This document shows, piece after piece, positions 7,220-26,724 of a stretch of 32,000 nucleotides of DNA. The stretch covers positions 30,001 to 62,000 of the forward strand of contig NC_000916.1 in the NCBI RefSeq assembly GCF_000008645.1. The letters run 5' to 3'. Both the position numbers and the translations under genes were made by a program. The notes under the pieces were generated by a model that had not been told where the DNA came from, searched no databases, and saw nothing but the letters and a program-made list of their open reading frames with translations. Source of the DNA: Methanothermobacter thermautotrophicus str. Delta H. Lineage in GTDB: Archaea; Methanobacteriota; Methanobacteria; Methanobacteriales; Methanothermobacteraceae. Position 1 is the first letter of the stretch, and the number at the start of each line of letters is the position of its first letter.

Positions 7220-7307
7220 GGTTCATCCACCTTTAAAATGAGTTTAAATCTTAAGGTATTAAAAGATTTTTAAAAATAGGAAAAAAAGTTGGGTTTAGAA
7301 TTGGAGT

Positions 7308-7838: not shown

Positions 7839-7874
7839 CTGTATTTCAGATAAAAATTAATTGTCACAGCATGT

Positions 7875-7882
7875 TATATAAA
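7875..7882 (-). promoter_or_regulatory. TATA box candidate (TTTATATA) for the fimbrin-like gene
   Basis: The reverse complement of tatataaa lies ~46 nt upstream of ATG 7829, leaving a ~23-nt leader that carries the RBS. Confidence 0.35.
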
Positions 7883-8014
7883 TCTTTTCATTTTTCGTGA
7901 CACCAGAAACATATATTTGAAGTATATGTGACTGAGTTCACAAAAACAGGTTTTCGATGGCAGCGGTTTGGTCAGGTTGCTGTGTAGATGAGTGTTGTCT
8001 GATAGGTACCGGGG

Positions 8015-8500
8015 TCAGTGTAGGGGGGTACCCGTGATGTAAAGGCTCATGGTTACACTCCTTGATCCATGGAGAAAGAACCCTCCGGTGTATGTCATTA
8101 TGGTCTGATCGGAGGTCGTGAAGGACCTCTTGCTAAGGCTGGGGGTGCTGAATTTGAGGCTGGATAGGGGTATCCTGAGTGAACTGTCAGCCGTGTTCAC
8201 AAGGTTCCCATCGGCCCTGACAGAAAGGGTATCCTGCCAGGCAAAGAAGTATGTCACAGTCGCTGTTACAGCGTTGGGGTAGCTCCTTTCGATGCCATCA
8301 GGGTAGACAGTCCCCAGGTTGATGCTTGAGGGCTCCACCTCTATTGATGCTGACAATGAGAGTGGCTGAACCCCACCCCCGCCTTTAACAGTTTTATTCA
8401 CTGCAGAGGAATTGTTACCTGTTTCATTTGCAGCCGCGGCTGTGAAGATTCCCCCCACGATTAGAAACAATAAAATCACGGAAATAACTGTCGTCCTCAT
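8015..8500 (-). CDS. Secreted beta-rich protein, fimbrin-like or fimbria-associated
   Basis: Signal peptide MRTTVISVILLFLIVGGIFTAAAA. EPSSINLGTVYPDG resembles VPNVNFGSIAAGSEG of the neighbouring fimbrin candidate. It shares that gene's strand and cluster. Confidence 0.45.
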   Translation of the reverse strand: MRTTVISVILLFLIVGGIFTAAAANETGNNSSAVNKTVKGGGGVQPLSLSASIEVEPSSINLGTVYPDGIERSYPNAVTATVTYFFAWQDTLSVRADGNLVNTADSSLRIPLSSLKFSTPSLSKRSFTTSDQTIMTYTGGFFLHGSRSVTMSLYITGTPLH

Positions 8501-8583
8501 GAAATCCCAACCTTCATATAATATTGCAAGAACACCTTTTTATATAATTTTCGATAGGTCGGGATGTCTTCCTTATTCCTGGA

Positions 8584-9336
8584 CTAGAGGGTGCGGATGA
8601 TCATCCTCCTCTTCGTGTGTCTCCTGAAGTCGAGGGATGTTGATACCCTGCTGAGGTACCTCCTGCTGATCCTAGCTGCCTCTCTGATTTCATCGTCACG
8701 GGGTCTGCGGGCGTCGAGGCTGTTACCATGGGCAACATACCCTGTTATCCTGTAGGGAACATCCCATACTGACAGGAACTCTGCAATCCCCTCAATCTCA
8801 TCAAGGTCAACAAAGCCAGGCACGAGGACCGTTGAGACCTCAATCCTCTCTGAACCTGAGAACTCCTCTATGCATTCAAGGACCTCCCTGTTGGACTCCC
8901 CGGTCAGCTGGATGTGTTTCTCCTCGTCGAGGGCCTTGAGGTCAACGTGGACCTCATGGAAGGTGCTCATCCATAGAACATCCCTGCGGGTGCCGTTGGG
9001 CGATATTGTCACATGGAAGTCTCCTGCGAGGATTTCGGTCAGTTCAGGAAGGTCCTCCTGGAGTGTGGGTTCACCCCCTGCTATGAGGACCCTCTCTACC
9101 CCGGTTTCATCACGGATCCTCTGGATTAGATCTGCTATCCTGTCTGGGGAGTGGTTCATACATCCTGATGGTTTGAAAAAGCAGTACCTGCACCTGAAGT
9201 TGCATGTTGGTGTCAGGACGGTTATGATGTCGCTTACAGATATGTGTGAGAGCTGGATGTGTTTCACCTCTGGATGGCATGTTTTTATATCTGTGGTATG
9301 TGTTATGGCCCGGTGTGTTTCACCTCGAAATGCCAC
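8584..9336 (-). CDS. Radical SAM domain protein
   Basis: CNFRCRYC (CxxxCxxC) cluster motif, a GGEPTL SAM-binding motif, and size and layout like activating-enzyme-type rSAM proteins. Confidence 0.75.
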   Translation of the reverse strand: MAFRGETHRAITHTTDIKTCHPEVKHIQLSHISVSDIITVLTPTCNFRCRYCFFKPSGCMNHSPDRIADLIQRIRDETGVERVLIAGGEPTLQEDLPELTEILAGDFHVTISPNGTRRDVLWMSTFHEVHVDLKALDEEKHIQLTGESNREVLECIEEFSGSERIEVSTVLVPGFVDLDEIEGIAEFLSVWDVPYRITGYVAHGNSLDARRPRDDEIREAARISRRYLSRVSTSLDFRRHTKRRMIIRTL

Positions 9337-10383: not shown

Positions 10384-10662
10384 TCAAATATATGGCATAG
10401 AAAGGAGAAGTACACCTATTAGGGACATTATAACAAAAAGTGTTTCGAGCACACCTTTTTCCTCGCCTCTAAACACCTTCTTCGACAGAAAATAGATTAG
10501 CAAAAACATATTTCCCAGTAAAAGACACGTTAACAATATAATAGGTAGTTCAGGCCTAGTATGCAGTAAAGCCAACCTACTACACGTAACAGTAAAACCA
10601 ACAAAATTGTAAAACACGATAACGACCCCAAAAAAATAAAAAAGCTTAGATGTATGCTGCAT
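10384..10662 (-). CDS. Small membrane ORF, family 2 (putative immunity-like partner of cassette E2)
   Basis: 92 aa with 3 hydrophobic helices. Its ATG is embedded in the last codons of the upstream cassette (gATGCAGCATACATCTAA). It is a paralogue of 18605..18883. Confidence 0.6.
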   Translation of the reverse strand: MQHTSKLFYFFGVVIVFYNFVGFTVTCSRLALLHTRPELPIILLTCLLLGNMFLLIYFLSKKVFRGEEKGVLETLFVIMSLIGVLLLSMPYI

Positions 10663-11042
10663 CCTCCCACCTCAAACTACCATCAGGATTCTTCGGTATT
10701 TCAATATAGTGTATACAATGATCCTCACCAACATAACTTCTCAACTCATAACCATAAATCCAGGTACGATGAATCGAAATATACTTCCAATATTCTTGGG
10801 GAAGATAATGAGTCCGTATCCTTAAAATCAAATCACCTTCAGCCACTATCACACTTATAAAACCCAAAGGACCCATAACAGCAGTGACACCGGCAACAGT
10901 TGCAATATCTAATATACCATGGAAAACATCCTCTAGAATGCATGTTTGGTGTTCTATGATGAATTCTTTGATATCGTCTGTGATGTTTAGGAGGCCTGTG
11001 TAGGCTATTATTGTTGCATATGCTGCCATGTTGAGTCCTATG
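10640..11042. repeat. ~0.4-kb near-identical repeat (partner 18861-19263, offset 8221); weaker similarity continues down to ~10140/18400
   Basis: Identical side-frame ORFs 10654..10860 and 18875..19081. One K/E difference in the cassette protein. Confidence 0.8.
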
Positions 11043-11426
11043 AGGCTGGCCCTACATAATCGAAAAAGAGGGTTTAGGATGGAAAGGTACATGGAGGTTA
11101 CAAAGCCCAATATAAGCCTTCTTAGTACTATCATCTAAACCTTCAAGGTTTACTGTGCCATTACCATCCAAGAGCGAATCTAACTTTTCAGATATTATGG
11201 CTTGGCCAAGTTCCCGAGCCCATTCTGTCTGTTGGTGGTAGTAGCAGTATGCTCCCATGAAAGCATAGATCATGTCCCTTACTATCCCTGTTGCATGGTC
11301 TATGATGAGGTATCTTCCCTGCCCGTCACTGATAAGCGTGTAATTCTCGCTTTCGAGGATGTTTAGTGACCCGCCGTTGAGGAGTGTTAGGCCTATTCCT
11401 GTTGTGTGGAGGTTTTGATCCTGGGA
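10646..11426 (-). pseudogene. Orphan C-terminal cassette E2 (5'-truncated copy of the large-protein C-terminus, internally frameshifted)
   Basis: It covers ORFs 11052..11273 (MIYAFMGAYCYYHQQTEWARELG..) and 10646..11134 (..LIGLNMAAYATIIAY..GEDHCIHYIEIPKNPDGSLRWEDAAYI). An extra T near 11100-11110 shifts the frame. There is no signal peptide and no N-terminal domains. Confidence 0.7.
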
Positions 11427-12183
11427 TTTGGGTTTATGGTTGATTTTTTTTGGATGGTGAGTTCTTTCAGGGCTTTTTTGGCTTTTTTGTATTCTGGGTC
11501 TATTTTCAGGGCTTTTTCATAGCATTTTAGTGCTTCTTTGTGTTTGCCGAGTTTTTGTAGTGTTTTTCCTTGCATGTACCATAGTGTTTTGTTTTGGGGG
11601 GTTTAGTTTGAGGGCTTTCTTGTAGCATTTCAGGGATTCCTCTGGTTTTTTGAGGTCTTCTAGGATTATGCCTTTCCATTTCCATGCATCGGCGAATTCG
11701 GGGTTTATTTCAAGGGCTTTTTGAAAGCATTCCAGCGCATCCTTATATTTTCCAAGTTCTTCGAGGACTAGTCCTTTGTTGTTCCATGTTTTGTCGTCTT
11801 CTGGATCTATTTCCAGGGCTTTTTCATAGCATTCTAGTGCCTCCTCATATCTCCCAAGTTCACTGAGGACTACTCCTTTGTTGTTCCATGCTTCTGCAAG
11901 TTTGGGGTTTATCTGTAATGCTTTTTCATAGCATTCTAGTGACTCATCATATCTCCCAAGTTCATTGAAAACTAGTCCTTTGTTGTTCCAAGCTTTATCA
12001 TCTTGTGGATTTAATTGGAGAACTTTGTCATAACATTTTAATGCTTCTTCATATATCTTAAGGTTATGTAATGTTATTCCTTTAGTTCCCCAAGCTCTAT
12101 AATTTTTTGGATTTAGCTCTATGGCTTTTTCGAAACATTTTAGTGCCTTTTTGTATTTTTTAAGGTAAATTAGAACGGAGCCT
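11131..12183. repeat. ~1.05-kb direct repeat (partner 21040-22092, offset 9909)
   Basis: Identical side-frame ORFs 11393/21302 and 11684/21593. Lines compared by eye at both ends. Confidence 0.8.
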
Positions 12184-12384: not shown

Positions 12385-12642
12385 TCATGTCTTAAGGATT
12401 CTAATCGTAAGAATTGCGAGCATCATTAGCCCAAAAATTCTGATCGCCTCTTGATGGCGAATTATCCAATCTTCTTTTTTTCTGAAAAAATACAATAAAA
12501 CGAAAAGGAGCCCCACGACTAACCAGTCAGTCAACTCAACCTTCGGGCTGTTTAAATATAACAGTTCAAGGAAAAAGATTATGAAAGTAACCATAAAAAG
12601 TATATCAAATTTTCTTTCACCTTTTTCAGACCTTTCAATCAT
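12385..12642 (-). CDS. Small membrane ORF (putative immunity-like partner of cassette F)
   Basis: 85 aa with 2-3 hydrophobic helices. RBS GAGGGG lies in the 18-nt gap after the cassette F stop. Confidence 0.5.
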   Translation of the reverse strand: MIERSEKGERKFDILFMVTFIIFFLELLYLNSPKVELTDWLVVGLLFVLLYFFRKKEDWIIRHQEAIRIFGLMMLAILTIRILKT

Positions 12643-12660: not shown

Positions 12661-13235
12661 CTAAATGTATATTGTTTCATTCTCTCTTAGCGTATCATCT
12701 GGATTTTTAGGAATCTCCTTGTAGTGTATACAATTATCCGCACCAATGTATGCTTCCAGTTTGTATCCATATATCGGGCCACGATGAAGGGATATATACT
12801 TCCAGTATTCCCTAGGTAGGTAATGATCCCTTATATTAAGAATCAAATCCCCTTCTGCAATAATACAAAAAACAAGGCTACAGTTGCCACAAAAGATCCT
12901 CCTTCTAACATAAAATAACAGCCACCAACCACACCTACTGCATCTAGAATATCCTTTGGGATGTATGTTTGATGTTCCACGATAAATTCTTTGATGCTAC
13001 CTGTAATGTTGTTGAGTTTGGAGTCTATGTAGGCTATTGTTGTTGCGTATGCTGCCATGTTAACTCTTATGAGGCCCTGACCCACCAGGCCATAACTGAT
13101 GATTTCCAAAGGTCATGGGATTGTGTGGGGCGGGTTGTATTGGGCTAATAAGGCCTCTTGAAGGCTTTTCTCGCGTTGTCCTTTAAGCCTTCAAAGGTTT
13201 GCTGTGCTGTTATCCTAAGAGTGACTTTAGCCTTT
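12661..13235 (-). pseudogene. Orphan C-terminal cassette F (decayed, several frameshifts)
   Basis: ORFs 12843..13109 and 12661..12846 join as ..AEGDLILNIRDHYLPREYWKYISLHRGPIYGYKLEAYIGADNCIHYKEIPKNPDD. Its 5' part is homologous to the copy-B region ERLKSLLDGNGTVNLEGL.. but is broken by stops. The motif residues are degenerate (ADNCIHY). Confidence 0.65.
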
Positions 13236-14438
13236 CATTTGGAGTTCTTTCAGGGCTTTTTTGGCTTTTTTGTATTCTGGGTCTATTTTCAGGGCTTTTT
13301 TGTAGGATTTTTTGGCTTTTTGGTGTTTTCCAAGTTTTTGTAGTGTTTTTCCTTGCATGTACCATAGTGTTTTGTCTTGGGGGTTTAGTTTGAGGGCTTT
13401 CTCGTAGCATTTCAGGGCTTCCTCTGGTTTTTTGAGGTCTTCCAGGATTATACCTTTCCATTCCCATGCATCGGCGAATTCTGGGTTTATTTCAAGGGCT
13501 TTTTCAAAACATTCCAGCGCCTCCTCATATTTTCCAAGTTTCCTGAGGAGTACTCCCTTGTTAGCCCATGTTTCGTCGTTTTCTAGGTTTATTTCTAAGG
13601 CTTTTTCATAGCATTCCAATGCCTCATCATATCTCTTAAGTTCTTCAAGGACTACTCCTTTGTTGTTCCATGCTTTTGCATTTTTTTGGTTTATTTCTAA
13701 GGCTTTTTCATAGCATTCTATTGCTTTTTCAGGTTTACCGATTGTGTCAAGGAGCGCTCCTTTGTTGTTCCATGTTCCATCGTCTTGTGGATCTATTTGT
13801 AGTGCCCTTCCATAGCATTCCAATGCCTCATCATATCTCTTAAGTTCTTCAAAAATTAGTGCTTTGTTGTACCATGCCTCTACGAATTCTGCGTTTATCT
13901 GTAATGCTTTTTCATAGCATTCCAATGCCTCCTCATATTTTCCGAGACTGCGTAATCCGTTACCTTTATTATACCATGCTTTTGCATTTTTTTGGTTTAT
14001 TTCTAAGGCTTTTTCATAGCATTCTATTGCTTTTTCAGGTTTACCGATTGTGTCAAGGAGCGCTCCTTTGTTGTTCCATGTTCCATCGTCTTGTGGATCT
14101 ATTTGTAGTGCCCTTTCATAGCATTCCAATGCCTCATCATATCTCTTAAGTTCTTTAAGGACTACTCCTTTGTTGTTCCATGCTTCTGCTAGTTTTGGAT
14201 TGTTTTTGAGGATTTTTTCATAACATTTTAAGGCTTTCTCTGGTCTTTTGAGTTTTAGTAGTGTCATTGCATTATAGTGCAAGATTTCCGGGTCGTTTGG
14301 ACTCGCCTTGAGGGCTTTCCTGAATTCTTTAAGAGCTTCTTTGTATTTTCCCTGTTTTAGGCTTGATCGGCCCCCGCTGAGGTGCCATCCAGCCTTTCCC
14401 CTGGCTATCCAATCCTTTATCTTCTTAAGGGGGTTCAT
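13227..14438 (-). CDS. TPR repeat protein (~11 TPR units), coupled to the upstream type-2 module
   Basis: 34-aa periodicity (..AWxNKGxxLxxLxRYDEALECYEKALxIxP..). ATGA start/stop overlap with 14435..15385. No catalytic domain. Confidence 0.8.
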   Translation of the reverse strand: MNPLKKIKDWIARGKAGWHLSGGRSSLKQGKYKEALKEFRKALKASPNDPEILHYNAMTLLKLKRPEKALKCYEKILKNNPKLAEAWNNKGVVLKELKRYDEALECYERALQIDPQDDGTWNNKGALLDTIGKPEKAIECYEKALEINQKNAKAWYNKGNGLRSLGKYEEALECYEKALQINAEFVEAWYNKALIFEELKRYDEALECYGRALQIDPQDDGTWNNKGALLDTIGKPEKAIECYEKALEINQKNAKAWNNKGVVLEELKRYDEALECYEKALEINLENDETWANKGVLLRKLGKYEEALECFEKALEINPEFADAWEWKGIILEDLKKPEEALKCYEKALKLNPQDKTLWYMQGKTLQKLGKHQKAKKSYKKALKIDPEYKKAKKALKELQMKG

Positions 14439-15385
14439 CCTCCAGCCTCTCTCAACTTCTTTTCTAGGTAGTTTTTGAATCCTAGTATGCAGGCTTCTAT
14501 TGTCTCACGATTCTCATAGGCTAATAGGCTTCCAATAGCCATCCCAGTGCCTATTACAGTACCTCCATGTTTTATGGCGCCCACGACATTCCCATCCTTT
14601 AAAGCCTCCTTGAACAGATCCCATTCATCCATCATGAGTTTACCTAAATTATTTATAGCCCTTCCTATATCGTCGGGATCGCCACCAACACCACCACTGC
14701 TAATCACCCTTAGAGTATCTACGGCTTCTCTATACTCATTTATCGCTTGACTCCATTCGTCAGACTGTCTTGATAGTATTTCAAGATAGTTTTGTATTGG
14801 TTGTGTGTCTCCTGTTAGTAGTGTGTAGGCGATGAATGTTGGCAGACCAGCGGGTGAGAGTAACATCATGGCATCTTCGATGTATGGGAGCCACTCAGGA
14901 TGTTCGATGAGGATATAAGCGACTATTGCAACAACTATTCCTATGCCAGCTGTCGCCGGCGCTGACAAGGCTCCTGCTTCGAGGATGGCGACTTCAGCTC
15001 CTCCTTCGAAGCCGACGACTTCAGCTCCTGAAACACCAGCAAATCCAATGAACTTCCACAAACCGGTCTCATTCAGTAGTTCTTTTGCGAGGTTGGCTGC
15101 CCATTCTGTCTGCAGGTGGCTGAAACAATATGCCCCCATAACATTCTTAAAGATATTGACATCCCTCACTATCCCTGTTGCAGTGTCGATGATCAGGTAG
15201 TCATTATCATAGTTTATTATGGTGTAGTTCCCAGCTTTTGTAATATTTAGTTTTTCTCCGTTCAGGAGCCTGTATGCTATGCTTGTGATCGCAGCACCTT
15301 CCATGATATCCCCTATATTGTCGAGGCTTCCATTGTATGGGAATAGGCGTTGCATTGAACTCTGAGGGGTTTGATGTCCCGACAA
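14435..15385 (-). CDS. Type-2 C-terminal module: junction block fused to a different Gly/Ala-rich hydrophobic C-terminus (likely start at ATG 15304)
   Basis: AITSIAYRLLNGEKLNITKAGNYTIINYDNDYLIIDTATGIVRDVNIFKNVMGAYCFSHLQTEWA aligns with the junction block of the 837/840-aa proteins. The rest (..ATAGIGIVVAIVAYILIEHPEWLPYIED..GGTVIGTGMAIGSLLAY..NYLEKKLREAGG) is unrelated to them. The listed start is TTG. ATG 15304 has TAGGGGAT 5 nt upstream. Confidence 0.6.
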   Translation of the reverse strand: MSGHQTPQSSMQRLFPYNGSLDNIGDIMEGAAITSIAYRLLNGEKLNITKAGNYTIINYDNDYLIIDTATGIVRDVNIFKNVMGAYCFSHLQTEWAANLAKELLNETGLWKFIGFAGVSGAEVVGFEGGAEVAILEAGALSAPATAGIGIVVAIVAYILIEHPEWLPYIEDAMMLLSPAGLPTFIAYTLLTGDTQPIQNYLEILSRQSDEWSQAINEYREAVDTLRVISSGGVGGDPDDIGRAINNLGKLMMDEWDLFKEALKDGNVVGAIKHGGTVIGTGMAIGSLLAYENRETIEACILGFKNYLEKKLREAGG

Positions 15386-15401: not shown

Positions 15402-15677
15402 TTATACCCCTGGAGATGCAATTAAACCCACTATAAGGAGCATTACCATCATCCATCTTATTTCATACTCTTTTTCCTTCAACTCGTAGTAGAGCCAGCA
15501 TAAAAGGAGAAGAGTGAACAAGCCTAAAGGGGCTGCTATTAGGGACAAAACATCACAATGATACTTAAGCGCAAGAATACATAGGAACATAACTATGCAG
15601 ATAAGAGGATAAGCCCTCTTATACCAAGATTCATAATCCAATAAGATCCCCTCCACTTTAGATATATACTGCTTCAT
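15402..15677 (-). CDS. Small membrane ORF, family 1 (DYES..EIRWM), putative immunity-like partner of large protein A (probable TTG start at 15641)
   Basis: 2-3 TM helices. GGAGGGG at 15648-15654 and TTG at 15641 reproduce the RBS/TTG arrangement of paralogues 20180..20425 and 23298..23534. It lies 16 nt after the protein A stop. Confidence 0.6.
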   Translation of the reverse strand: MKQYISKVEGILLDYESWYKRAYPLICIVMFLCILALKYHCDVLSLIAAPLGLFTLLLLCWLYYELKEKEYEIRWMMVMLLIVGLIASPGV

Positions 15678-18171
15678 CCCACCTCAAACTACCATCAGGA
15701 TTCTTCGGTATTTCAATATAGTGTATACAATGATCCTCACCAACATAACATCTCAACTCATAACCATCGTACCAGGAACGATGATACGATATATACTTCC
15801 AATACTCTTTTGGAAGATAATAATCTCTAAAGCTCAATATTTTATCACCAAACCACATACAAAACCCAATTGACCCTAATATCGCCCCAGCACCTCCTTT
15901 TGACACGTATCCAAAAACAGTAAGTAAAATATCTATAATGTCTTTTGGAATGTATGTTTGGTGTTCTATGATGAATTTTTTGATATCGTCTGTGATGTTT
16001 TGGAGGCTTGTGTAGGCTATTGTTGTTGCATATGCTGCCATGTTGAGTCCTATAAGTCCCTGACCCACAAGAGCATAATTGAGGATATCAACGAAAGCCA
16101 TTGGACCTTCCAGGGCAATGTACATGGAGATTACAAGGCCAATATAGGCCTTCTTGATACTATCATCTAAACCTTCAAGGTTTACTGTGCCATTACCATC
16201 CAAGAGCGAATCTAACTTTTCAGAGAATATTATGGCTTGGCCAAGTTCCCGGGCCCATTCTGTTTGTTGGTGGTAGTAGCAGTATGCTCCCATGAAAGCA
16301 TAGATCATGTCCCTTACTATCCCTGTTGCATGGTCTATGATGAGGTATCTTCCCTGCCCGTCACTGATAAGCGTGTAATTCCCGCTTTCGAGGATGTTTA
16401 GTGACCCGCCGTTGAGGAGTGTTAGGCCTATTCCTGTTGTGGGCGCGCTTGTGGGGTCTGATCCTGGGAAGAGGGCCTCCATCACATAGTATTCTATTGG
16501 ATTTATAGCTGATGTTCTCGCATAATTGAATGCTTTAATGTTTTCGGGTGTGCCTTCTGCTTTCACGGCCATGTTGTGGTTGCATTCGAGGCTTATCCAT
16601 GTCCCTGGGCTGTGGTCTCCTGCTGAGACCATCACTGGCATGGTCCTGGTCCATGTTACATTATAGCGCGTGGCTGCTTCTTCTGCGATGAGATCGTGGA
16701 GGTATATTACTTCAAGGCCTGTTAGGAATGTTCCGTGGGCTGCCTTTAATGGTCCGGGCTCGTATGTCCTGTTTAGCCACTTTTGTAATGTCTGGTTTGT
16801 TATCTTCCCTGTGGCGAGGGTGTAGGTTATGATGGCGTCGTAGTTGCTAGCCTCCCAGATGAGAGTGTCGTTTATTATGATATTGGGTCCTGTTTCTCCT
16901 GGTGGGTGTATGTATTGGCCGTTTGTGTAGAGTAGGAGGAGTGTTCTTGTTGATTTGTTCCCTGGGAATGTTATATTGGCTATTGTCACCTTTTCCTCGC
17001 CGGGATACTCCACACTGACCTGTAAAGGGTCTATGCACTTGTTATAGTTTGTGAGTATGAATATCTTTTCTGCCTGGGTTAAATTGAAGTTGTTGAGATA
17101 TTCATTCACTTGAGGTTCTGCTCCGAGTTTTGTGTAAATTTCTATGAGTCTGTTCAGGCCAGCTATGACTTGCCAGACTATTTCTCTTTGACTCTGGCTG
17201 TTAGCCTGGTAGAATGGGTTAGTGACCTCGGCTAGTTTGTATGCTATGCCATCCTCCACAAGGAATATTGTTTCATTGAATAGGCCCGAAGATATAGCCC
17301 CTATACTAATCCATTTAACCGTGTCATTGAGCGGAATTTTAAATGTTAAATTTAGGGGCTTCCCAGAGGATGTTGCCGTGGAATTAACATGGACCGTTGC
17401 AAGCATAACCTCCAATGTAATAGTCTTCGTGTCTGTTATGCCATAGCCTTGGACTGTTAGGGTTACTTTGTAGGTTCCTGGTTTGTAGGCGTGTACTGGA
17501 TTCTTCTGGGTGCTTGTGCTTTGGTCTCCGAAGTCCCATTTGTAGTATTGTATTGTCCCTGTACTTTTATCCTGGAATTGGACATTATAGCCTTGTATTG
17601 TGTAGGTGTAGTCTGCCCTTGGCCTTACTATAATTCCACCCTTACCTGTAACATATTCTACTGTTACATAGTTTGGTAGTCTTCCTGTGCTGTTGTAGAA
17701 GTTTATTATCCTTGCATTGGCATATATTAGGCTTTCTGGGCGGACTTGTCCAATGGCTGTGCTGGCATAATTCGGCGACCTCCCATAGGATTCCATGAAA
17801 GCCTTAACATTCTTTGCCACCTGCAAGTATCCTGCTTTTTGGAGTGTTCCTGTTCCTGTTCCACTTGGACTGGGCGGGGAGGCCATACTATTGAATGACA
17901 AGCCAACTCTCCTACCCTGATCGAGGTTTATGATGGTTGAGGATGAGGCGTAGAGGTAGTCGTCTGCCGACACATTCTTACCGTTAATCACAACCTGTGA
18001 TGGTATTTTTTCATGTTGTGCAGTGTAGTTTCCGATCAGCTTTGAAACGTCACAAATCTCATCATAGGATAAACTCACAGCTGAAGAACTGCCCAAAAGA
18101 CAGAAAAAGGACAGGATCGCCAGAAAAAACAACAACCTCCTCACAGCCACCACCATAATATGATAACACAT
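15658..18171 (-). CDS. Large secreted protein A: signal peptide, 2 pseudomurein-binding-like repeats, PKD domain, unassigned ~300-aa domain, junction block, variable hydrophobic C-terminus with a conserved His/Cys end module (polymorphic-toxin-like)
   Basis: 837-aa ORF. IGNYTAQHEKIPSQVVINGKNVSADDYLYASSSTI and VKAFMESYGRSPNYASTAIGQVRPESLIYANARII resemble PMBR repeats. YKWDFGDQSTSTQKNPVHAYKPGTYKVTLTV is a classic PKD signature. Residues 23-640 are identical to protein B. The start may be ATG 18156 (MVVAVRRLL). Confidence 0.7.
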   Translation of the reverse strand: MCYHIMVVAVRRLLFFLAILSFFCLLGSSSAVSLSYDEICDVSKLIGNYTAQHEKIPSQVVINGKNVSADDYLYASSSTIINLDQGRRVGLSFNSMASPPSPSGTGTGTLQKAGYLQVAKNVKAFMESYGRSPNYASTAIGQVRPESLIYANARIINFYNSTGRLPNYVTVEYVTGKGGIIVRPRADYTYTIQGYNVQFQDKSTGTIQYYKWDFGDQSTSTQKNPVHAYKPGTYKVTLTVQGYGITDTKTITLEVMLATVHVNSTATSSGKPLNLTFKIPLNDTVKWISIGAISSGLFNETIFLVEDGIAYKLAEVTNPFYQANSQSQREIVWQVIAGLNRLIEIYTKLGAEPQVNEYLNNFNLTQAEKIFILTNYNKCIDPLQVSVEYPGEEKVTIANITFPGNKSTRTLLLLYTNGQYIHPPGETGPNIIINDTLIWEASNYDAIITYTLATGKITNQTLQKWLNRTYEPGPLKAAHGTFLTGLEVIYLHDLIAEEAATRYNVTWTRTMPVMVSAGDHSPGTWISLECNHNMAVKAEGTPENIKAFNYARTSAINPIEYYVMEALFPGSDPTSAPTTGIGLTLLNGGSLNILESGNYTLISDGQGRYLIIDHATGIVRDMIYAFMGAYCYYHQQTEWARELGQAIIFSEKLDSLLDGNGTVNLEGLDDSIKKAYIGLVISMYIALEGPMAFVDILNYALVGQGLIGLNMAAYATTIAYTSLQNITDDIKKFIIEHQTYIPKDIIDILLTVFGYVSKGGAGAILGSIGFCMWFGDKILSFRDYYLPKEYWKYISYHRSWYDGYELRCYVGEDHCIHYIEIPKNPDGSLRWDEAVYI
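16252..18105. repeat. Long direct repeat, copy 1 (partner 24753-26606, offset 8501), apparently 100% identical
   Basis: The encoded proteins are identical. Three pairs of alternative-frame ORFs are also identical with the same offset (16847/25348, 17222/25723, 17491/25992). The boundary lines were compared by eye. Confidence 0.85.
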
Positions 18172-18222
18172 TATAGTATAAAAAGATTACTATCTCTTTT
18201 AGGGGCGAAAAATATAAAAGGT
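18172..18222 (-). promoter_or_regulatory. Conserved promoter region of protein A (two TATA-like elements)
   Basis: The minus strand reads cTTTTATATTTTTcg..cTTTTTATACTATA directly upstream of the ATGs. The same ~50 nt recur at 26673-26724 upstream of protein B, and similarity stops beyond them. Confidence 0.4.
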
Positions 18223-18604
18223 GGGATTTAAGACAAGAGCATGAATCCCATCATTACAAGCTTAAACAGGAAAAAATAGGCACTTACCATCCCCCCCAGA
18301 TGGGCAAAGAGAAACCTTATATTGCTGTCATAAAATGATTCTTGTTTACATAATGATTCTTGAGGAGTTTATTTTGTCATGCTTGAAAATAAAATATGTG
18401 GAGGCCGAGAAGAAAACTTTGATAGTCGCTTTTTTGGGAACCTGATATCCCCTTTTGGGTTTGTGTAGTGTGGTGTTTGATCCATTTTTAGGTTATTCTG
18501 GGAGGGGGGGATGAGATTGGAGGCTGCTATTTGGAGGCTAGAAATGTCCTGAGCCTCTTTATTTTGGTATTGGCTTGTTGGTTTGTTGTTGGGTTTAACG
18601 CTCC

Positions 18605-18883
18605 TCAATGATATAGCCGAGAAAGGAGAAGTACACCTACTAGGAGCATTATAACAAAAAGTGTTTCGATCACACCTTTTTCCTCGCCTCTGAACACCTT
18701 CTTCGACAGAAAATAGATTAGCAAAAACATATTTCCCAGTAAAAGACACGTTAACAATATAATAGGTAGTTCAGGCCTAGTAGGCAGTAAAGCCAACTTA
18801 CTACCCGTAAACAGTAAAACCAACAAAATTGTAAAACACGATAACGACCCCAAAAACTGAAAAAGCTTAGATGTATGCTGCAT
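18605..18883 (-). CDS. Small membrane ORF, family 2 (putative immunity-like partner of cassette E1)
   Basis: 92 aa. It shares RPELPIILLTCLLLGNMFLLIYFLSKKVFRGEEKGV with 10384..10662. Its ATG is embedded in the cassette's last codons. Confidence 0.6.
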   Translation of the reverse strand: MQHTSKLFQFLGSLSCFTILLVLLFTGSKLALLPTRPELPIILLTCLLLGNMFLLIYFLSKKVFRGEEKGVIETLFVIMLLVGVLLLSRLYH

Positions 18884-19274
18884 CCTCCCACCTCAAACTA
18901 CCATCAGGATTCTTCGGTATTTCAATATAGTGTATACAATGATCCTCACCAACATAACTTCTCAACTCATAACCATAAATCCAGGTACGATGAATCGAAA
19001 TATACTTCCAATATTCTTGGGGAAGATAATGAGTCCGTATCCTTAAAATCAAATCACCTTCAGCCACTATCACACTTATAAAACCCAAAGGACCCATAAC
19101 AGCAGTGACACCGGCAACAGTTGCAATATCTAATATACCATGGAAAACATCCTCTAGAATGCATGTTTGGTGTTCTATGATGAATTTTTTGATATCGTCT
19201 GTGATGTTTAGGAGGCCTGTGTAGGCTATTATTGTTGCATATGCTGCCATGTTGAGTCCTATAAATCCCTCCAC
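18867..19274 (-). CDS. Orphan C-terminal cassette E1 (5'-truncated; no ATG, listed start is GTG inside ..LVEGFIG..)
   Basis: ..EGFIGLNMAAYATIIAYTGLLNITDDIKKFIIEHQTCILEDVFHGILDIATVAGVTAVMGPLGFISVIVAEGDLILRIRTHYLPQEYWKY..GEDHCIHYIEIPKNPDGSLRWEDAAYI. Homology to the full-length genes begins only at ~19295. Confidence 0.7.
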   Translation of the reverse strand: MEGFIGLNMAAYATIIAYTGLLNITDDIKKFIIEHQTCILEDVFHGILDIATVAGVTAVMGPLGFISVIVAEGDLILRIRTHYLPQEYWKYISIHRTWIYGYELRSYVGEDHCIHYIEIPKNPDGSLRWEDAAYI

Positions 19275-19404: not shown

Positions 19405-19647
19405 TTATGCAAGGCCAAAGAAGCCTATAATTACAAGCAAGCCTCCAAGTGCTCTGACAGTTTCATTTTCAGTTTTTCCCAACTCATCCTTGCCTAATAG
19501 GTAAATTAAGAGAAACATGTTCACTATGTAAATGGAATAGACAATTAATTTGCTGATAATATAGGGGAAACGGAGACTAACCACAACCAATGCAGCAGTA
19601 AAATAAGAAAGGAAATAACTAAAATAAAAAATGTACTTTACCATCAT
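19405..19647 (-). CDS. Small membrane ORF, distant family 2 (putative immunity-like partner of cassette D)
   Basis: 80 aa, 3 hydrophobic helices. It shares NMFLLIYLLGK with family 2. RBS AGGAGGA lies in the 13-nt gap after the cassette D stop. Confidence 0.55.
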   Translation of the reverse strand: MMVKYIFYFSYFLSYFTAALVVVSLRFPYIISKLIVYSIYIVNMFLLIYLLGKDELGKTENETVRALGGLLVIIGFFGLA

Positions 19648-19660
19648 ATCATCCTCCTAA

Positions 19661-20164
19661 TCAGATATACACTGCTTCATCCCATCTTAAAGTACCATCT
19701 GGGTTCTTTGGGATTTCAATGTAGTGTATGCAATGGTCTTCGCCAACATAAATTTTAAGTTCATAACCATGCCGCCAAGTTCTATGGTAAGAAACATATT
19801 TCCAATATTCAGTTGGAAGATAATTCGTTCTTACATTCACAATTAAATCACCTTCTGCTAATAGTAGAGAAGCAATCGAAAAAATACCACTTGCCAAGGT
19901 GACACCTTCACTACTAAGCTCTTTTAAACTCCATATAAAAAGAATCCCATCTATAATGTCCCCTCCAATGCATGTTTGGTGTTCTATGATGAATTTTTTG
20001 ATATCGTCTGTGATGTTTAGGAGGCCTGTGTAGGCTATTATTGTTGCATATGCTGCCATGTTGAGTCCTATGAGGCTGGCCCTACATAATCGAAAAAGAG
20101 GGTTTAGGATGGAAAGGTACATGGAGGTTACAAAGCCCAATATAAGCCTTCTTAGTACTATCAT
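19661..20164 (-). CDS. Orphan C-terminal cassette D (5'-truncated; the first ~10 listed residues are an out-of-frame artefact)
   Basis: The core GGDIIDGILFIWSLKELSSEGVTLASGIFSIASLLLAEGDLIVNVRTNYLPTEYWKY is unique. The end module is conserved. DNA homology (..LDGNSTVNLEGLDDSTKKAYIG) starts at ~20200, overlapping the preceding ORF's 3' end. It has the same extra-T frameshift as E2. Confidence 0.7.
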   Translation of the reverse strand: MIVLRRLILGFVTSMYLSILNPLFRLCRASLIGLNMAAYATIIAYTGLLNITDDIKKFIIEHQTCIGGDIIDGILFIWSLKELSSEGVTLASGIFSIASLLLAEGDLIVNVRTNYLPTEYWKYVSYHRTWRHGYELKIYVGEDHCIHYIEIPKNPDGTLRWDEAVYI

Positions 20165-20179: not shown

Positions 20180-20425
20180 TTACAGTGCTGTTGCCATCCA
20201 GGAAAAGGACGAGCCTACTACAAAGGTTATGGCCATTAACCATCGTATTTCATCCTCTCTTTCCTTCAATTTGAATTGGAGCCAGAATAGAAGAGAAAAA
20301 ATGAACAAGCCTAAAAGGTCTGCTATTGGAATCAAACCATTAAAATGTTTAATTCCAATGGAAAATAAAATAATATCGAGACAAAGAAGGGAATAAAGTA
20401 TATCGAGCAAAGATTCATAATCCAA
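20180..20425 (-). CDS. Small membrane ORF, family 1 (TTG start, RBS AGGAGGTG at 20433-20440)
   Basis: 81 aa. DYESLLD..EDEIRWLM is paralogous to 15402..15677 and 23298..23534. A decayed cassette-end remnant (~20446-20485) lies directly upstream. Confidence 0.6.
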   Translation of the reverse strand: MDYESLLDILYSLLCLDIILFSIGIKHFNGLIPIADLLGLFIFSLLFWLQFKLKEREDEIRWLMAITFVVGSSFSWMATAL

Positions 20426-20464: not shown

Positions 20465-20554
20465 TTAGGGTTCGTTTGAGAATTTTAGCCCCATATAGTT
20501 GCCGCGGATCGTAAAATACGCCAAAAACTGAAAAAGCTTAGATGTATACTGCAT
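20465..20554 (-). pseudogene. Truncated family-2 membrane ORF remnant after cassette C
   Basis: MQYTSKLFQFL.. starts inside the last codons of cassette C exactly as in E1/E2, then diverges and stops after 29 codons. Confidence 0.45.
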
Positions 20555-21182
20555 CCTCCCACCTCAAACTACCATCAGGATTCTTCGGTATTTCAATATA
20601 GTGTATACAATGATCCTCACCAACATAACTTCTCAACTCATAACCATAAATCCAGGTACGATGAATCGAAATATACTTCCAATATTCTTGGGGAAGATAA
20701 TGATCTCTAAATGTAAGTATGCCATCACCTATCCGCATACACCATCCAATTGGTTGAAATATTTCACCACCATACCTTACTAACACATATGCCAAAACCT
20801 GGATCAAACAGTGAGCAGTATCTTCTGAGATGTATGTTTGGTGTTCTATGATGAATTTTTTGATATCGTCTGTGATGTTTAGGAGGCTTGTGTAGGCTAT
20901 TATTGTTGCATATGCTGCCATGTTGAGTCCTATAAATCCCTCCACAAGAGCATAATTGAGGATATCAACGAAAGCCATTGGACCTTCCAGGGCAATGTAC
21001 ATGGAGATTACAAGGCCAATATAAGCCTTCTTGATACTATCATCTAAACCTTCAAGGTTTACTGTGCCATTACCATCCAAGAGCGAATCTAACTTTTCAG
21101 ATATTATGGCTTGGCCAAGTTCCCGAGCCCATTCTGTCTGTTGGTGGTAGTAGCAGTATGCTCCCATGAAAGCATAGATCAT
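20538..21182 (-). CDS. Orphan C-terminal cassette C (homology extends 5' to ~21335; no N-terminal domains)
   Basis: The in-frame upstream extension reads TTGIGLTLLNGGSLNILESENYTLISDGQGRYLIIDHATGIVRD-MIYAFMG... The unique core is SEDTAHCLIQVLAYVLVRYGGEIFQPIGWCMRIGDGILTFRDHYLP. The end module is identical to that of E1/E2. Confidence 0.7.
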   Translation of the reverse strand: MIYAFMGAYCYYHQQTEWARELGQAIISEKLDSLLDGNGTVNLEGLDDSIKKAYIGLVISMYIALEGPMAFVDILNYALVEGFIGLNMAAYATIIAYTSLLNITDDIKKFIIEHQTYISEDTAHCLIQVLAYVLVRYGGEIFQPIGWCMRIGDGILTFRDHYLPQEYWKYISIHRTWIYGYELRSYVGEDHCIHYIEIPKNPDGSLRWEDAVYI

Positions 21183-21425: not shown

Positions 21426-22565
21426 TCATAGCATTTTAGTGCTTCTTTGTGTTTGCCGAGTTTTTGTAGTGTTTTTCCTTGCATGTACCATAGTGTTTTG
21501 TTTTGGGGGGTTTAGTTTGAGGGCTTTCTTGTAGCATTTCAGGGATTCCTCTGGTTTTTTGAGGTCTTCTAGGATTATGCCTTTCCATTTCCATGCATCG
21601 GCGAATTCGGGGTTTATTTCAAGGGCTTTTTGAAAGCATTCCAGCGCATCCTTATATTTTCCAAGTTCTTCGAGGACTAGTCCTTTGTTGTTCCATGTTT
21701 TGTCGTCTTCTGGATCTATTTCCAGGGCTTTTTCATAGCATTCTAGTGCCTCCTCATATCTCCCAAGTTCACTGAGGACTACTCCTTTGTTGTTCCATGC
21801 TTCTGCAAGTTTGGGGTTTATCTGTAATGCTTTTTCATAGCATTCTAGTGACTCATCATATCTCCCAAGTTCATTGAAAACTAGTCCTTTGTTGTTCCAA
21901 GCTTTATCATCTTGTGGATTTAATTGGAGAACTTTGTCATAACATTTTAATGCTTCTTCATATATCTTAAGGTTATGTAATGTTATTCCTTTAGTTCCCC
22001 AAGCTCTATAATTTTTTGGATTTAGCTCTATGGCTTTTTCGAAACATTTTAGTGCCTTTTTGTATTTTTTAAGGTAAATTAGAACGGAGCCTTTATTGTA
22101 CCATGCATCTGCAAGTTTGGGGTTTATCTGTAATGCTTTTTCATAGCATTCTAGTGCCTCATCATATCTCCCAAGTTCTTTGAGGACTAGTGCTTTATTG
22201 TTCCATGCTCCTGCATACTTTGGATTTATTTTTAGTGCTTTTTCATAGCATTCTAGTGCCTCATCATATCTCCCAAGTTCTTTGAGGACTAGTCCTTTGT
22301 TGTTCCATGCTTCTGCAAGTTTTGGATTGTTTTTGAGGATTTTTTCATAGCATTCTAAGGCTTTCTCTGGTCTTTTGAGTTTTAGTAGTGTTATTGCATT
22401 GTAGTGGAGGATTTCTGGGTTGTTTGGTCTTGCTTTGAGGGCTTTCCTGAATTCTTTGAGGGCTTCTTTGTATTTTCCCTGTTTTAGGCTTGATCGGCCC
22501 CCAGCAAGGTGCCATCCAGCCTTTCCCTCGGCTATCCAATCCTTTATTTTCTTAAGGGGGTTCAT
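21426..22565 (-). CDS. TPR repeat protein, frameshifted near its 3' end (last TPR units continue in ORF 21302..21484)
   Basis: 379 aa of TPR units. At the G6 run 21505-21510 the frame slips (..KLNPPKQNTMVH.. instead of ..KLNPQ.KTLWYMQGKTLQKLGKH..). ATGA overlap with 22562..23164. Confidence 0.75.
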   Translation of the reverse strand: MNPLKKIKDWIAEGKAGWHLAGGRSSLKQGKYKEALKEFRKALKARPNNPEILHYNAITLLKLKRPEKALECYEKILKNNPKLAEAWNNKGLVLKELGRYDEALECYEKALKINPKYAGAWNNKALVLKELGRYDEALECYEKALQINPKLADAWYNKGSVLIYLKKYKKALKCFEKAIELNPKNYRAWGTKGITLHNLKIYEEALKCYDKVLQLNPQDDKAWNNKGLVFNELGRYDESLECYEKALQINPKLAEAWNNKGVVLSELGRYEEALECYEKALEIDPEDDKTWNNKGLVLEELGKYKDALECFQKALEINPEFADAWKWKGIILEDLKKPEESLKCYKKALKLNPPKQNTMVHARKNTTKTRQTQRSTKML

Positions 22566-23164
22566 CCTCCAGCCTCTCTCAACTTCTTTTCTAGGTAGTT
22601 TTTGAATCCTAGTATGCAGGCTTCTATTGCTTCACGATTCTCATAGGCCAATAGGCTTCCAATAGCCATCCCAGTGCCTATTATAGTGCCTCCATGTTTT
22701 ATGGCGCCCACAACATCCCCATCCTTTAAAGCCTCCTTGAACAGATCCCATTCATCCATCATGAGTTTACCTAAATTATTTATAGCCCTTCCTATATCAT
22801 CAGGGTCTGGGGATGATGGGACATTCACTTGAGGAAGCTCCCCCCAATTTGTAATTCTTTTCTTCCATTCCTTGTCAGGTATTATTTTTGCTAATTCTTG
22901 TATTGGTTGTGTGTCTCCTGTTAGTAGTGTGTAGGTGATGAATGTTGGCAAACCACCAGGTGAAAGTAGCATGCTCATCATCATAGCATCTTCGATGTAT
23001 GGTAGCCATTCAGGATGCTCCATGATAATAATTAGAGCCAGGGTAATAACCAAGCCTAAACCTAGTGTTTCTGGGGCTGAAAGCACACCCAATTCAAGTG
23101 CAGCTGCTTCGGCTGTTGAAACACCAGCAACACCAATAAATTTCCACCAACCACTCCAATTCAA
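22562..23164 (-). CDS. Type-2 C-terminal module, 5'-truncated and frameshifted copy
   Basis: Homologous, with several substitutions and small indels, to the C-terminal ~200 aa of 14435..15385 (..IEHPEWLPYIEDAMM..NYLEKKLREAGG). Upstream, MGAYY(fs)HQQTELAKKLGNEILNWSGWWKF shows a 1-nt deletion, and homology ends at ~23225. Confidence 0.6.
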   Translation of the reverse strand: MNWSGWWKFIGVAGVSTAEAAALELGVLSAPETLGLGLVITLALIIIMEHPEWLPYIEDAMMMSMLLSPGGLPTFITYTLLTGDTQPIQELAKIIPDKEWKKRITNWGELPQVNVPSSPDPDDIGRAINNLGKLMMDEWDLFKEALKDGDVVGAIKHGGTIIGTGMAIGSLLAYENREAIEACILGFKNYLEKKLREAGG

Positions 23165-23297: not shown

Positions 23298-23534
23298 TTA
23301 TGTTCCGAATATAATTAATGCAAGGATTATGGCAATCATCCATCTTATTTCTTCTTTTTTTCCCTTCAACTCATCCACGAAGAAGTGCAACCAGAATAAA
23401 AGGAAATAAATAAACACGGTTAAAAGGGCCGCTATTGGAACCAAACCATTAAAATGCCTAATCCCAACAAAATATAAAATAATATCAACACAAATAAGAA
23501 AATAAACCTTCCCAAACAAAGATTCATAATCCAA
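23298..23534 (-). CDS. Small membrane ORF, family 1 (TTG start)
   Basis: 78 aa. DYESLFG..KEEIRWMIAI. It lies 15 nt after the stub stop at 23550-23552. Confidence 0.55.
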   Translation of the reverse strand: MDYESLFGKVYFLICVDIILYFVGIRHFNGLVPIAALLTVFIYFLLFWLHFFVDELKGKKEEIRWMIAIILALIIFGT

Positions 23535-23549
23535 AAAAGACCCTTCTCA

Positions 23550-23640
23550 CTAACAATATACTGCTTCATCCCACCGTAGAGTACCATCAGGGTTCTTCGG
23601 CATTCCATGTTGTATGCAATGGGATCCTTCATACTGAAGT
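23550..23640 (-). pseudogene. Stub of a cassette 3' end (last ~28 codons only)
   Basis: It reads YEGSHCIQHGMPKNPDGTLRWDEAVYC*, compared with YVGEDHCIHYIEIPKNPDGTLRWDEAVYI*. It abuts the stop of 23629..24045. Confidence 0.6.
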
Positions 23641-24045
23641 ATTGGATTCTTTGATTAAAAGGGTTGCGACTATCAGAGCAAAAATACCTATTAATATTCT
23701 GTCTAAGATTATCATTGTTAAAGCAAAGATGTATGCTAGTATTATGGAGGATTTGGCTAACCATTCCATCTTAAGTTTCCCTATCTTATTTAAGAAGATG
23801 AAAGAGATTATGAGGAATGTGAAAGCCCCCACATCCCCCCCAAGGAAAAAAGATCCAATGGCAAGCAACACACCACCTATAACCCCATATAAGAGAAAAT
23901 CCAACCTCTTTTCCCGTTCTCCTAAACCTCCTAATATCAGTAATATACAACCTATAAATACTAACATAAAAAGTATACAGCCTATGATTATTCTTAAACC
24001 TAACATAGAACCACCCATCCTTTTTCTCCAATCACCCCACCACAA
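23629..24045 (-). CDS. Multi-TM small protein downstream of protein B (candidate immunity-like ORF; likely start at ATG 24018)
   Basis: 4 hydrophobic helices with Gly-rich loops and no paralogue in the window. It is ~130 nt from the protein B stop, so less tightly coupled than the other pairs. Confidence 0.45.
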   Translation of the reverse strand: MWWGDWRKRMGGSMLGLRIIIGCILFMLVFIGCILLILGGLGEREKRLDFLLYGVIGGVLLAIGSFFLGGDVGAFTFLIISFIFLNKIGKLKMEWLAKSSIILAYIFALTMIILDRILIGIFALIVATLLIKESNTSV

Positions 24046-24149
24046 ATCACCTCAAAGCCAAAACCAAACACAACTTAGTAGATCTGCCACTGAAACCAAC
24101 ACCTAGATAATCAGCACATAAAGCTTATCAATCCAAACAAACCACCACC

Positions 24150-26672: not shown

Positions 26673-26724
26673 TATAGTATAAAAAGATTACTATCTCTTT
26701 TAGGGACCGAAAAATATAAATATG
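26673..26724 (-). promoter_or_regulatory. Conserved promoter region of protein B
   Basis: Nearly identical to 18172-18222, with the same TATA-like elements. Confidence 0.4.

Follow-up and report, generated by a model that had tools for sequence, protein, structure and literature searches.

Polymorphic toxin systems such as CdiA-CT/CdiI and Rhs, and those predicted in archaea, are built to a common plan, in which a secreted, surface-bound multidomain protein has a conserved body up to a sharp junction, followed by unrelated C-terminal domains (CTs), with a small gene downstream of each and with arrays of 5'-truncated copies that keep the pre-junction homology. For archaea such systems were reportedly predicted by Makarova et al. 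in 2019 (mBio). We discuss here a locus with the same architecture in Methanothermobacter thermautotrophicus str. Delta H, in a stretch of 32,000 nucleotides (nt) of contig NC_000916.1 (positions 30,001 to 62,000) that we call the window and whose numbering we use throughout. Our main concern is one of its CTs, that of gene A (15658-16252), and the short hypervariable segment inside it that we refer to as the core. All features of the locus are on the minus strand.

Several other systems bear on the core. In A-type colicins the hydrophobic hairpin or its tip is said, from work by Pilsl, Smajs and Braun in 1998 and by Espesset in 1996, to carry immunity specificity. In the case of the DNase colicins E2, E7, E8 and E9, Riley in 1993 and Kleanthous and co-workers reportedly found that a short hypervariable patch in an otherwise conserved toxin domain sets cognate Im binding and that new specificities arise via recombination and diversification. 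For IdsD and IdsE of Proteus mirabilis, Cardarelli, Saak and Gibbs reportedly found in 2015 that allele-specific binding is set by variable hydrophobic segments of these two membrane-associated proteins. In Neisseria pilE/pilS there are silent 5'-truncated copies, a variable mini-cassette between conserved homology arms, and mosaic alleles. Pore-forming colicins (A, U, Y and E1 types) have immunity proteins that are small and integral to the membrane (PMC9558359), and in CdiA-CT(EC93)/CdiI(EC93) and TspA/TsaI the membrane-depolarising CT of a polymorphic delivery protein is countered by an immunity protein that is itself a small membrane protein (PMC9558359).

We think that the window holds a polymorphic toxin-immunity locus of an archaeon whose CT acts on membranes; immunity specificity would lie in the core, and the conserved blocks on either side of it, the clamps, would allow the core to be exchanged. 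We put the probability of this reading at about 0.55. With regard to the definition of polymorphic toxins by Zhang et al. 2012 and Ruhe et al. 2020, the locus has a secreted multidomain protein, a sharp junction, unrelated CTs, a type-specific downstream gene for each and 5'-truncated orphan arrays; none of its CTs belongs to a recognised toxin domain family. The locus has a counterpart in M. marburgensis (CP001710) that is 94-97% identical and has different neighbouring genes on either side.

Gene A (15658-18171), as read from the open reading frame (ORF) and its translation, encodes a full-length secreted protein of 837 amino acids (aa) that comprises, in order, an N-terminal hydrophobic signal-like segment, three pseudomurein-binding repeats (PMBR, Pfam match E=1e-26), a PKD domain (PKD_4, E=7.5e-14), a conserved pre-junction body and the CT, the upper edge of which coincides exactly with the polymorphic junction. 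Gene B (24150-26672) is a second full-length copy, of 840 aa, with a different CT (core 24312-24449, tail 24153-24311). The DNA of the two genes is 100% identical over nt 66-1921, ending with the junction motif GAYCYYHQQTEWA (16252-16290, gene A codons 628-640), which is the last segment common to both, and they differ from codon 641 on. Their 5' leaders are near-identical, and a TATA-like element lies about 45 nt before the ATG of each (TTTATATT at A, TTTATATTTTTCG at both; 18200-18225 and 26700-26725, minus strand). In Methanobacteriales relatives the junction is conserved as [GS][AS][YW]C[YF]..Q.TEWA. The locus differs from CdiA and Rhs in its archaeal host, in targeting via pseudomurein-binding repeats and in having this junction in place of VENN or PxxxxDPxGL. 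The pre-junction body of gene A (16290-17300, residues ~290-627) has a pattern, KAAxGTFLT…HD…A…YNVTW.RT…LECxHxMG…ID..TGIxRD, that every relative retains, irrespective of how its N-terminus is built; the body has no match in Pfam or the PDB, and could be a pre-toxin or release domain.

An earlier inspection of this DNA, made from its letters and open reading frames and here called the sequence-only reading, had seen in the CT a departure from classic polymorphic toxins, where everything after the junction varies. On this point we differ, as there is a classic sharp junction at 16252-16290 with unrelated CTs beyond it. Behind this one junction stand three unrelated CT types, and the class of the downstream gene differs from type to type. 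Type I is that of genes A and B and of five 5'-truncated cassettes in the window (C, D, E1, E2 and F), each followed by a small ORF with three predicted transmembrane (TM) segments. Type II is represented at 13227-15385 by a CT orphan (14435-15385) that shares the pre-junction sequence and junction and is then unrelated, followed by an 11-repeat TPR protein (13227-14438), a pair also present in M. marburgensis, and again, in 5'-truncated form, at 21426-23164 (CT 22562-23164, TPR protein 21426-22565). Type III (…GGFDLLINGLREYEQW…) is found in L002, L004, L006 and L007, with a TM ORF of 113-121 aa downstream, and there are additional CT variants behind the junction in P0029, P0033, P0034 and P0036. 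CT type thus predicts the type of the gene that follows, which is the logic of toxin-immunity pairs. The unrelated domain of type II is 230 aa long and the TPR repeats, 11 in each of the two TPR proteins, are 102-nt tandem units (family D1), with fragments of TPR genes also lying between cassettes F and E1 (11393-12174); an immunity protein of the TPR kind would be unusual.

The type I CT has a second tier of polymorphism inside one CT family, and in this too it is unlike CdiA and Rhs: about 30 residues vary between clamps, and conservation extends over the final 53 residues. In gene A the junction is followed by a helical region (residues 641-705, 16057-16251) that is recognised from alignments and low-confidence AlphaFold2 (AF2) helices and has a Kyte-Doolittle peak of 1.6-1.7. 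Next come the upstream clamp LIGLNMAAYAT.IAY..NITDDIKKFIIEHQT (15955-16056; DNA identity 0.72-0.95) and the variable core of 45 aa (15820-15954), predicted to form a helix, a Gly-rich turn and a helix, with its inner hypervariable 30 codons at ~15850-15939. The tail of 53 aa, YLPxEYWKY...GEDHCIHYIEIPKNPDGxLRWxEAVYI (15661-15819), is predicted to be a short helix and a beta-hairpin.

In a MAFFT alignment of seven cassette DNAs, mean pairwise identity drops to a trough of 0.23-0.41 at ~15940-15855 of gene A, as against 0.72-0.95 in the upstream flank (16055-15957) and 0.66-0.88 in the downstream flank (15824-15660), and falls again to 0.1-0.4 in the small ORFs downstream of the cassettes. The proteins give the same picture. 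Taking mean pairwise identity over 10 alleles, the upstream block stands at 0.70 (8 of 34 columns invariant) and the tail at 0.76 (26 of 53), the core at 0.36 (5 of 45) and the inner 30 residues of the core at 0.23, with not one of the 30 columns invariant. The difference in identity between core and flanks has p = 4e-10 (Mann-Whitney), and that in invariant columns between the inner 30 residues and the flanks p = 1e-5 (Fisher). The hypervariable stretch is bounded by D744 and G775, both invariant, and these two residues, the predicted helix-turn-helix and the hydrophobic pattern are retained in every core class, of which we count about a dozen in the window and metagenomes. The core is hydrophobic, with 14% Gly and a Kyte-Doolittle value of 1.5-2.1, which is marginal. 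The sequence-only reading had proposed just such a Gly-rich, hypervariable hydrophobic core between conserved blocks, and the trough at both levels bears it out; its placing of the core at ~15838-15951 is close to what we measure, the six peptide strings that it quoted are all present, on the minus strand, and the even divergence across the C-terminus that would have told against it is not seen, the trough being confined to the core.

With 30 sequences AF2 models the CT at a confidence score (pLDDT) of 59, and on a 10-sequence alignment at 45. In the 30-sequence model the tail alone is confident (79-96), and is predicted to be a beta-hairpin and a short helix preceded by the last part of a long one. 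The core is modelled as helices at 114-130 and 136-158 of the CT with the Gly-rich turn between them (pLDDT 55-64). This low-confidence prediction is in keeping with the proposal of a membrane-helix hairpin, but the continuous hydrophobic stretch of one allele, discussed below, could equally be a single membrane span. In a wide family alignment the only near-invariant tail residues across Methanobacteriales are P160, W164 and P195. A catalytic role for the DHCIH motif of the tail was considered and ruled out, as the motif is not conserved in the wider family, and the tail is thus a structural module and not an enzyme.

The blocks of the CT have different histories, as estimated block by block with the method of Nei and Gojobori. 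For the core, synonymous divergence (dS) runs from 0.9 to saturated and nonsynonymous divergence (dN) from 0.4 to 1.05, with dN/dS 0.34-0.74. As dS and dN are both high, the cores are old alleles and not a recent burst. In the upstream clamp A, C, D and E1 differ from one another at a dS of only ~0-0.05, a sign of recent homogenisation by gene conversion; a second version of the clamp is common to B and F (repeat D11), with a dS of ~0.5 from the other. The tails of C and E (E1) are identical, and the D tail has dS 1.8-3.7 and dN ~0.1 relative to all others. Tail dN/dS is 0.03-0.05 (in comparisons with saturated dS), evidence of strong purifying selection on the protein. The sequence-only reading had treated the flanks as nearly invariant at DNA level. 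That holds for the clamps of A, C, D and E and for the C and E tails, but not for the B/F clamp nor for the D tail; nor is the tail a mere DNA-level clamp, being a confidently predicted folded module under purifying selection that is conserved across Methanobacteriales.

The grouping of alleles also changes from block to block, {A,C,D,E} and {B,F} in the upstream block, {A,B,C} and {D,E,F} in the core, and {C,E} with identical tails, and recombination breakpoints thus lie at the block edges. The mosaic dS patterns are in line with the breakpoints that had been suggested there. Comparison of the window with M. marburgensis shows that the cores shared by the two (A, C, D and E2) have no differences in 555 nt, the tails none and the partner ORFs almost none, as against 2.0% differences in the 5' part of gene A. 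The core is thus not fast-mutating, and "hypervariable" has to be understood as the existence of many discrete and stable allele classes. A core no more variable than its surroundings in orthologous loci had been named by the sequence-only reading as something that would count against it; formally this is what we find, yet the core is highly polymorphic between allele classes.

There are also candidates for transfer of the core alone. In L005 the A cassette has a diverged patch of ~150 nt that covers helix 2 and the first part of the tail, with 97-100% identity to the window in helix 1 and 100% from mid-tail through the partner ORF; the patch has the appearance of a conversion tract. L009 has the order E core, shared tail, immC, with the E core in a full-length gene, and L011 the order C-type core, shared tail, immE, with a C-type core in the E slot, in both cases with segments 93-100% identical to window cassettes. 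Both arrangements come from metagenome contigs whose parts meet at a perfect ~160-nt repeat, the tail common to C and E, and may be either real crossovers in that tail or assembly chimeras.

The partner ORFs of the type I CTs are 78-92 aa in length, and every one has three Kyte-Doolittle peaks, of 1.6-2.5, with a charged loop ahead of the third. The ORF downstream of gene A, immA (15402-15677), is a 3-TM ORF of family 1 with an EIRW loop and Kyte-Doolittle peaks of 1.9-2.3. It is identical in M. marburgensis and L005, is an annotated gene in CP001710, and is the candidate cognate immunity protein. Partners of family 1 (EIRW loop) go with cores having P-x-G-x-C-M (A, A', B, C and P0009), those of family 2 with cores D, E, P0012 and L015, and those of family 3 with cores F and P0010. 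In M. marburgensis CP001710, which is finished, and in the window, which is apparently finished, a given core class has the same partner ORF behind it in every instance. Core identity and partner identity are correlated (Mantel r = 0.68, p = 5e-4, 10 pairs), and more weakly so when metagenome contigs are added (r = 0.34, p = 0.001, 17 pairs), although physical linkage contributes to the correlation. The tail lies physically between core and partner, and over the 10 pairs gives r = 0.46 with the partner and r = 0.16, not significant, with the core. The partner ORFs have dN/dS of 0.5-1.0, that is, fast evolution at protein level. The suggestion that the small ORFs next to the cassettes belong with the core is supported, both in the strong 3-TM prediction and in the correlation of their similarity with that of the core. 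With regard to the E partners, immE1 (10384-10662) and immE2 (18605-18883) differ at residues 9-30, in the first TM helix, by an apparent compensated frameshift; a different frame of E1 (ORF 10530-10670) contains the E2-type peptide FLGSLSCFTILLVLL, and both versions recur elsewhere (M. marburgensis, L004).

The likeness to pore-forming colicins is one of architecture only, a predicted helical CT with what may be a hydrophobic helical hairpin of ~40 residues, and 3-TM partners where the colicins have immunity proteins of 3-4 TM segments. The locus differs from them in having no Colicin match in sequence or fold, shorter helices, a conserved beta-rich tail after the hairpin, and chromosomal cassette arrays without a lysis gene in place of plasmid operons; Pfam Colicin (PF01024) has no match among 30 family members at E <= 1. 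The comparison with colicins put forward in the sequence-only reading is an analogy only, with no Pfam Colicin or PDB fold match and no enrichment of GxxxG. The CdiA-CT(EC93) and TspA systems are unrelated in sequence and use different secretion routes, and a clamped hypervariable segment has not been described for them. The DNase colicins and their Im proteins are soluble enzyme-inhibitor pairs, whereas both partners here are hydrophobic or membrane proteins. In the case of Ids the architecture of the locus is compatible, but Ids is exported by type VI secretion, has a single CT type and is without orphan cassette arrays.

A number of observations weigh against a toxin-immunity locus of the kind we propose. 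Outside the tail the CT is modelled as all-helical at low confidence, and the hydrophobic stretches of the core are short, at 12-16 residues per helix, except that allele E has 26 continuous hydrophobic residues (Kyte-Doolittle 2.08) and resembles a single span, so that the core segment may be a membrane anchor in the producer cell. No CT of the locus matches a described toxin domain, there being no toxin-family match for any of them in Pfam, NCBIfam or PADLOC, where searches with the full protein, all CT types and the partner ORFs gave only PMBR, PKD, TPR and C39. Foldseek gave no match against the PDB better than E = 0.78, and sequence searches of the PDB with the CT profile and the central domain gave none. 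A glycine zipper was considered and rejected, GxxxG being seen 7 times as against 10.0 +/- 2.7 in shuffled sequences and small-xxx-small 30 times as against 32.0 +/- 4.3, with no Pfam match. Reassortment is seen in four of the 17 core-partner pairs: the B core and the E core each occur with immC, a C-type core with immE, and the P0014 core with a P0010-like partner. If real, this means that adjacency is not always cognate; all four sit at perfect repeats in metagenome assemblies and may be assembly chimeras. A' (P0007) has a partner ORF identical to that of A, although the two cores depart from each other at 12 of 45 residues. Finally, common ancestry of the three partner-ORF families could not be demonstrated (hhalign probability 5-11%).

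The alternative that survives best is non-lethal recognition of self and non-self (kin recognition), which we nevertheless consider unlikely. The CT would be presented or transferred to a neighbour, where the core must bind a matching 3-TM partner, and a mismatch would alter behaviour, such as aggregation or the formation of filaments or granules, with no killing, in parallel with IdsD-IdsE. Variability that is limited to a hydrophobic stretch flanked by conserved sequence, together with a membrane partner that varies as well, fits this, as do the lack of any CT with a recognisable toxin domain and the stable, discrete allele classes. However, arrays of silent, 5'-truncated cassettes with partner genes and unrelated CTs behind one junction are hallmarks of toxins and are not known for Ids-type loci; the module is also found behind a C39 peptidase and a bacteriocin-like leader, and the partner varies over its whole length and not in one subdomain.

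Less probable again is that the core is the C-terminal membrane anchor of an adhesin-like surface protein, with the small TM proteins as anchor partners or chaperones and the cassettes as decaying duplicates. In Methanobacteriales adhesin-like proteins the C-terminal hydrophobic helices have been interpreted as a membrane-anchoring domain (PMC11532034), relatives of our module are carried on giant beta-helix adhesin-like proteins, and the continuous hydrophobic span of allele E is what an anchor would have. This explanation leaves unaccounted for the deep allelic diversity of a buried segment and its association with the downstream ORF, the conserved cassette arrays with intact reading frames that are identical across strains, the unrelated CT types with type-specific downstream genes, and the presence of the module on a small secreted C39 protein. 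The weakest case is that of a core with no role in specificity, a hydrophobic spacer under weak constraint whose variability reflects unequal constraint and gene conversion of the flanks: core dN/dS is never above 1, the flanks are visibly homogenised (dS ~0) and four of 17 pairs are reassorted, but the very high dS of the core as against that of the flanks is a contrast of history and not of constraint only, cores are identical between strains within an allele class (0/555 nt), D744, G775, the helix-turn-helix and the hydrophobic pattern are kept in all classes, and partner similarity is better predicted by the core than by the intervening tail.

If the locus is indeed one for toxin and immunity, we infer toxicity, membrane insertion, immunity function and a direction of transfer, and the system may work as follows. 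The protein would be exported by Sec and bind pseudomurein via its PMBR repeats, carrying an exchangeable CT after GAYCYYHQQTEWA. The type I CT would be a membrane-active module of amphipathic helices, a Gly-rich hydrophobic helix-turn-helix core and a small folded beta tail, the core of which would enter the membrane of the target cell and dissipate its integrity or ion gradient. The 78-92-aa 3-TM partner would sit in the membrane of the producer and block the cognate core through contacts between helices inside the bilayer, as the membrane immunity proteins of pore-forming colicins and CdiA-CT(EC93) do with their toxins. In such a system the core would be the specificity determinant, existing as old, discrete allele classes, and the upstream block and tail would be common parts of the toxin that double as homology arms, so that short-patch gene conversion between silent cassettes and expressed genes could exchange the core while the array retains one immunity gene per core held.

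A more specific version of this is that the clamps form a mini-cassette device for gene conversion, by which a specificity segment of ~135 nt in a membrane toxin is switched without moving immunity genes, and that the hairpin plus tail is a new family of archaeal membrane toxins, carried by PMBR proteins, adhesin-like proteins and self-processing C39 bacteriocin precursors; we offer this tentatively, as a suggestion that is considerably less secure than the toxin-immunity reading itself. The layout of a mini-cassette system is present, with truncated silent donors and a variable segment between conserved homology arms, and the candidate core-only transfers are the L005 patch, L009 and L011. 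The locus resembles pilE/pilS in its truncated copies, bracketed variable segment and mosaic alleles, but pilE/pilS serves antigenic variation, where the purpose here would be the switching of a weapon or its specificity, and a programmed initiator is not in evidence at this locus. What we consider to be new are the pseudomurein-targeted scaffold, a CT family with a conserved beta tail, and a two-tier polymorphism with a segment of ~30 residues between convertible flanks. We found no description of this locus in the literature searched, which did not take in the 2019 paper on archaeal polymorphic toxins.

With regard to the array as a whole, the window has five type I cassettes, one tail remnant (G) and two type II cassettes, and M. 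marburgensis has four cassettes; cassette-partner pairs of the window recur in CP001710. Cassette C (20538-21182) keeps the junction and is followed by immC (20180-20425, family 1), the same pair being present in M. marburgensis. Cassette D (19661-20164) is degenerate in its 5' part and has immD (19405-19647, family 2). Cassette E2 (18867-19274) is followed by immE2, also of family 2, and cassette E1 (10646-11134), from which a frameshifted junction fragment extends to 11273, by immE1. Cassette F (12661-13109) has a frameshift at ~12846 and is followed by immF (12385-12642, family 3), with an intact version in P0003. The remnant G (23541-23607) consists of the end of a tail, followed by a 3-TM ORF of family 1 (23298-23534). 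Between this ORF and gene B is a multi-TM ORF of 138 aa (23629-24045), with a copy of the tail end on each side of it (24141-24207 and 23541-23607, repeat D8), in the manner of an insertion with duplication; either of the two ORFs may be the partner of gene B.

The cassette region (10000-30500) has 35-45% G+C as against 47-56% in the housekeeping flank at 1-9000 (GluRS, an aminotransferase, an FmdE-like protein and a radical SAM protein), and the low value is typical of a variable island; taken with the PMBR repeats, a flank G+C of ~50% points to Methanobacteriales. In L003 (10001-14565), a metagenome contig with 2x coverage, one cassette and its partner ORF are repeated at least 5 times with a period of 865 nt; we judge real amplification to be unlikely and an assembler loop at low coverage to be the probable cause. 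The 777-aa protein of L004 (13016-15349) has the same signal, PMBR and PKD N-terminus with a different central region, and thus the N-terminal scaffold and the pre-junction body are also modular. Its CT is much shorter, with one Gly-rich helix and a diverged tail, and is followed by a TM ORF of 100 aa. In the orphan cassette at 9157-10130 of L002 (Methanobacterium sp. UBA279) almost nothing separates the junction GAYCFHDQITELTRF from the final 27 residues of the tail, GSDNCIHYIEIPKNSDGTLNWNEAIYY, and a 3-TM ORF of 94 aa follows; the cassette is a deletion derivative and shows conservation of the tail across genera.

Directly upstream of gene B is a second polymorphic locus (27204-30524), with a gene for a Peptidase_C39 protein (E=2.9e-33) that is secreted and that, past the junction LSTEEMQNIRGK, ends in a short hydrophobic helix and a tail of the same family (…IIVTVRDKYVPRKYWKYCAYHPP…DHCIHYVEY); a TM ORF comes next. 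Two more cassettes start from the same junction, at LSTEEMQKIIGK, and encode Gly/Trp-rich peptides, with a TM ORF after each; the junction repeats are D15 and D18, and the TM ORFs of this locus are of 151, 122 and 131 aa. In the window the C39 gene is broken by a frameshift that falls between ORFs 30246-30524 and 29620-30189; L003 has it intact. The junction resembles the double-glycine bacteriocin leader LSxxELxxIxGG. The presence of the tail family on the C39 protein, and its alternation with Gly/Trp-rich peptides, indicate that the module is exchanged among delivery scaffolds, where bacteriocin-like peptides can stand in its place.

The type I module is thus found on three kinds of scaffold: PMBR/PKD proteins, beta-helix adhesin-like proteins of 1100-2400 aa and the secreted C39-peptidase protein. 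A word-indexed search gave only 12 relatives, all from Methanothermobacter, and an exhaustive profile search gave 48 cluster representatives, the right-handed beta-helix "adhesin-like" proteins of 1100-2400 aa among them. The scan of genome contigs gave one Methanobacterium locus only, Methanothermobacter genomes seemingly being missing or masked there, and the word search with the pre-junction body gave no match in an index seemingly without full-length relatives. The CT had no tblastn match in collections of phages and plasmids.

To our knowledge antagonism and kin discrimination in methanogens are essentially without experimental characterisation, and archaeal polymorphic toxins are so far computational predictions. 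The locus offers a compact and testable case in a cultivable and genetically tractable genus that is used in power-to-methane reactors, with a defined junction and about a dozen natural core alleles, each class with candidate partners, and it draws attention to a tail domain without known fold that occurs across Methanobacteriales, including adhesin-like proteins of the gut Methanobrevibacter type. If our reading is correct, then some "adhesin-like proteins" with "C-terminal anchors" would be toxin-delivery proteins, toxin-immunity specificity would be encoded at the level of the membrane in a code that can be dissected by swaps of 30 residues, and the conserved flanks would permit exchange of that specificity via gene conversion.

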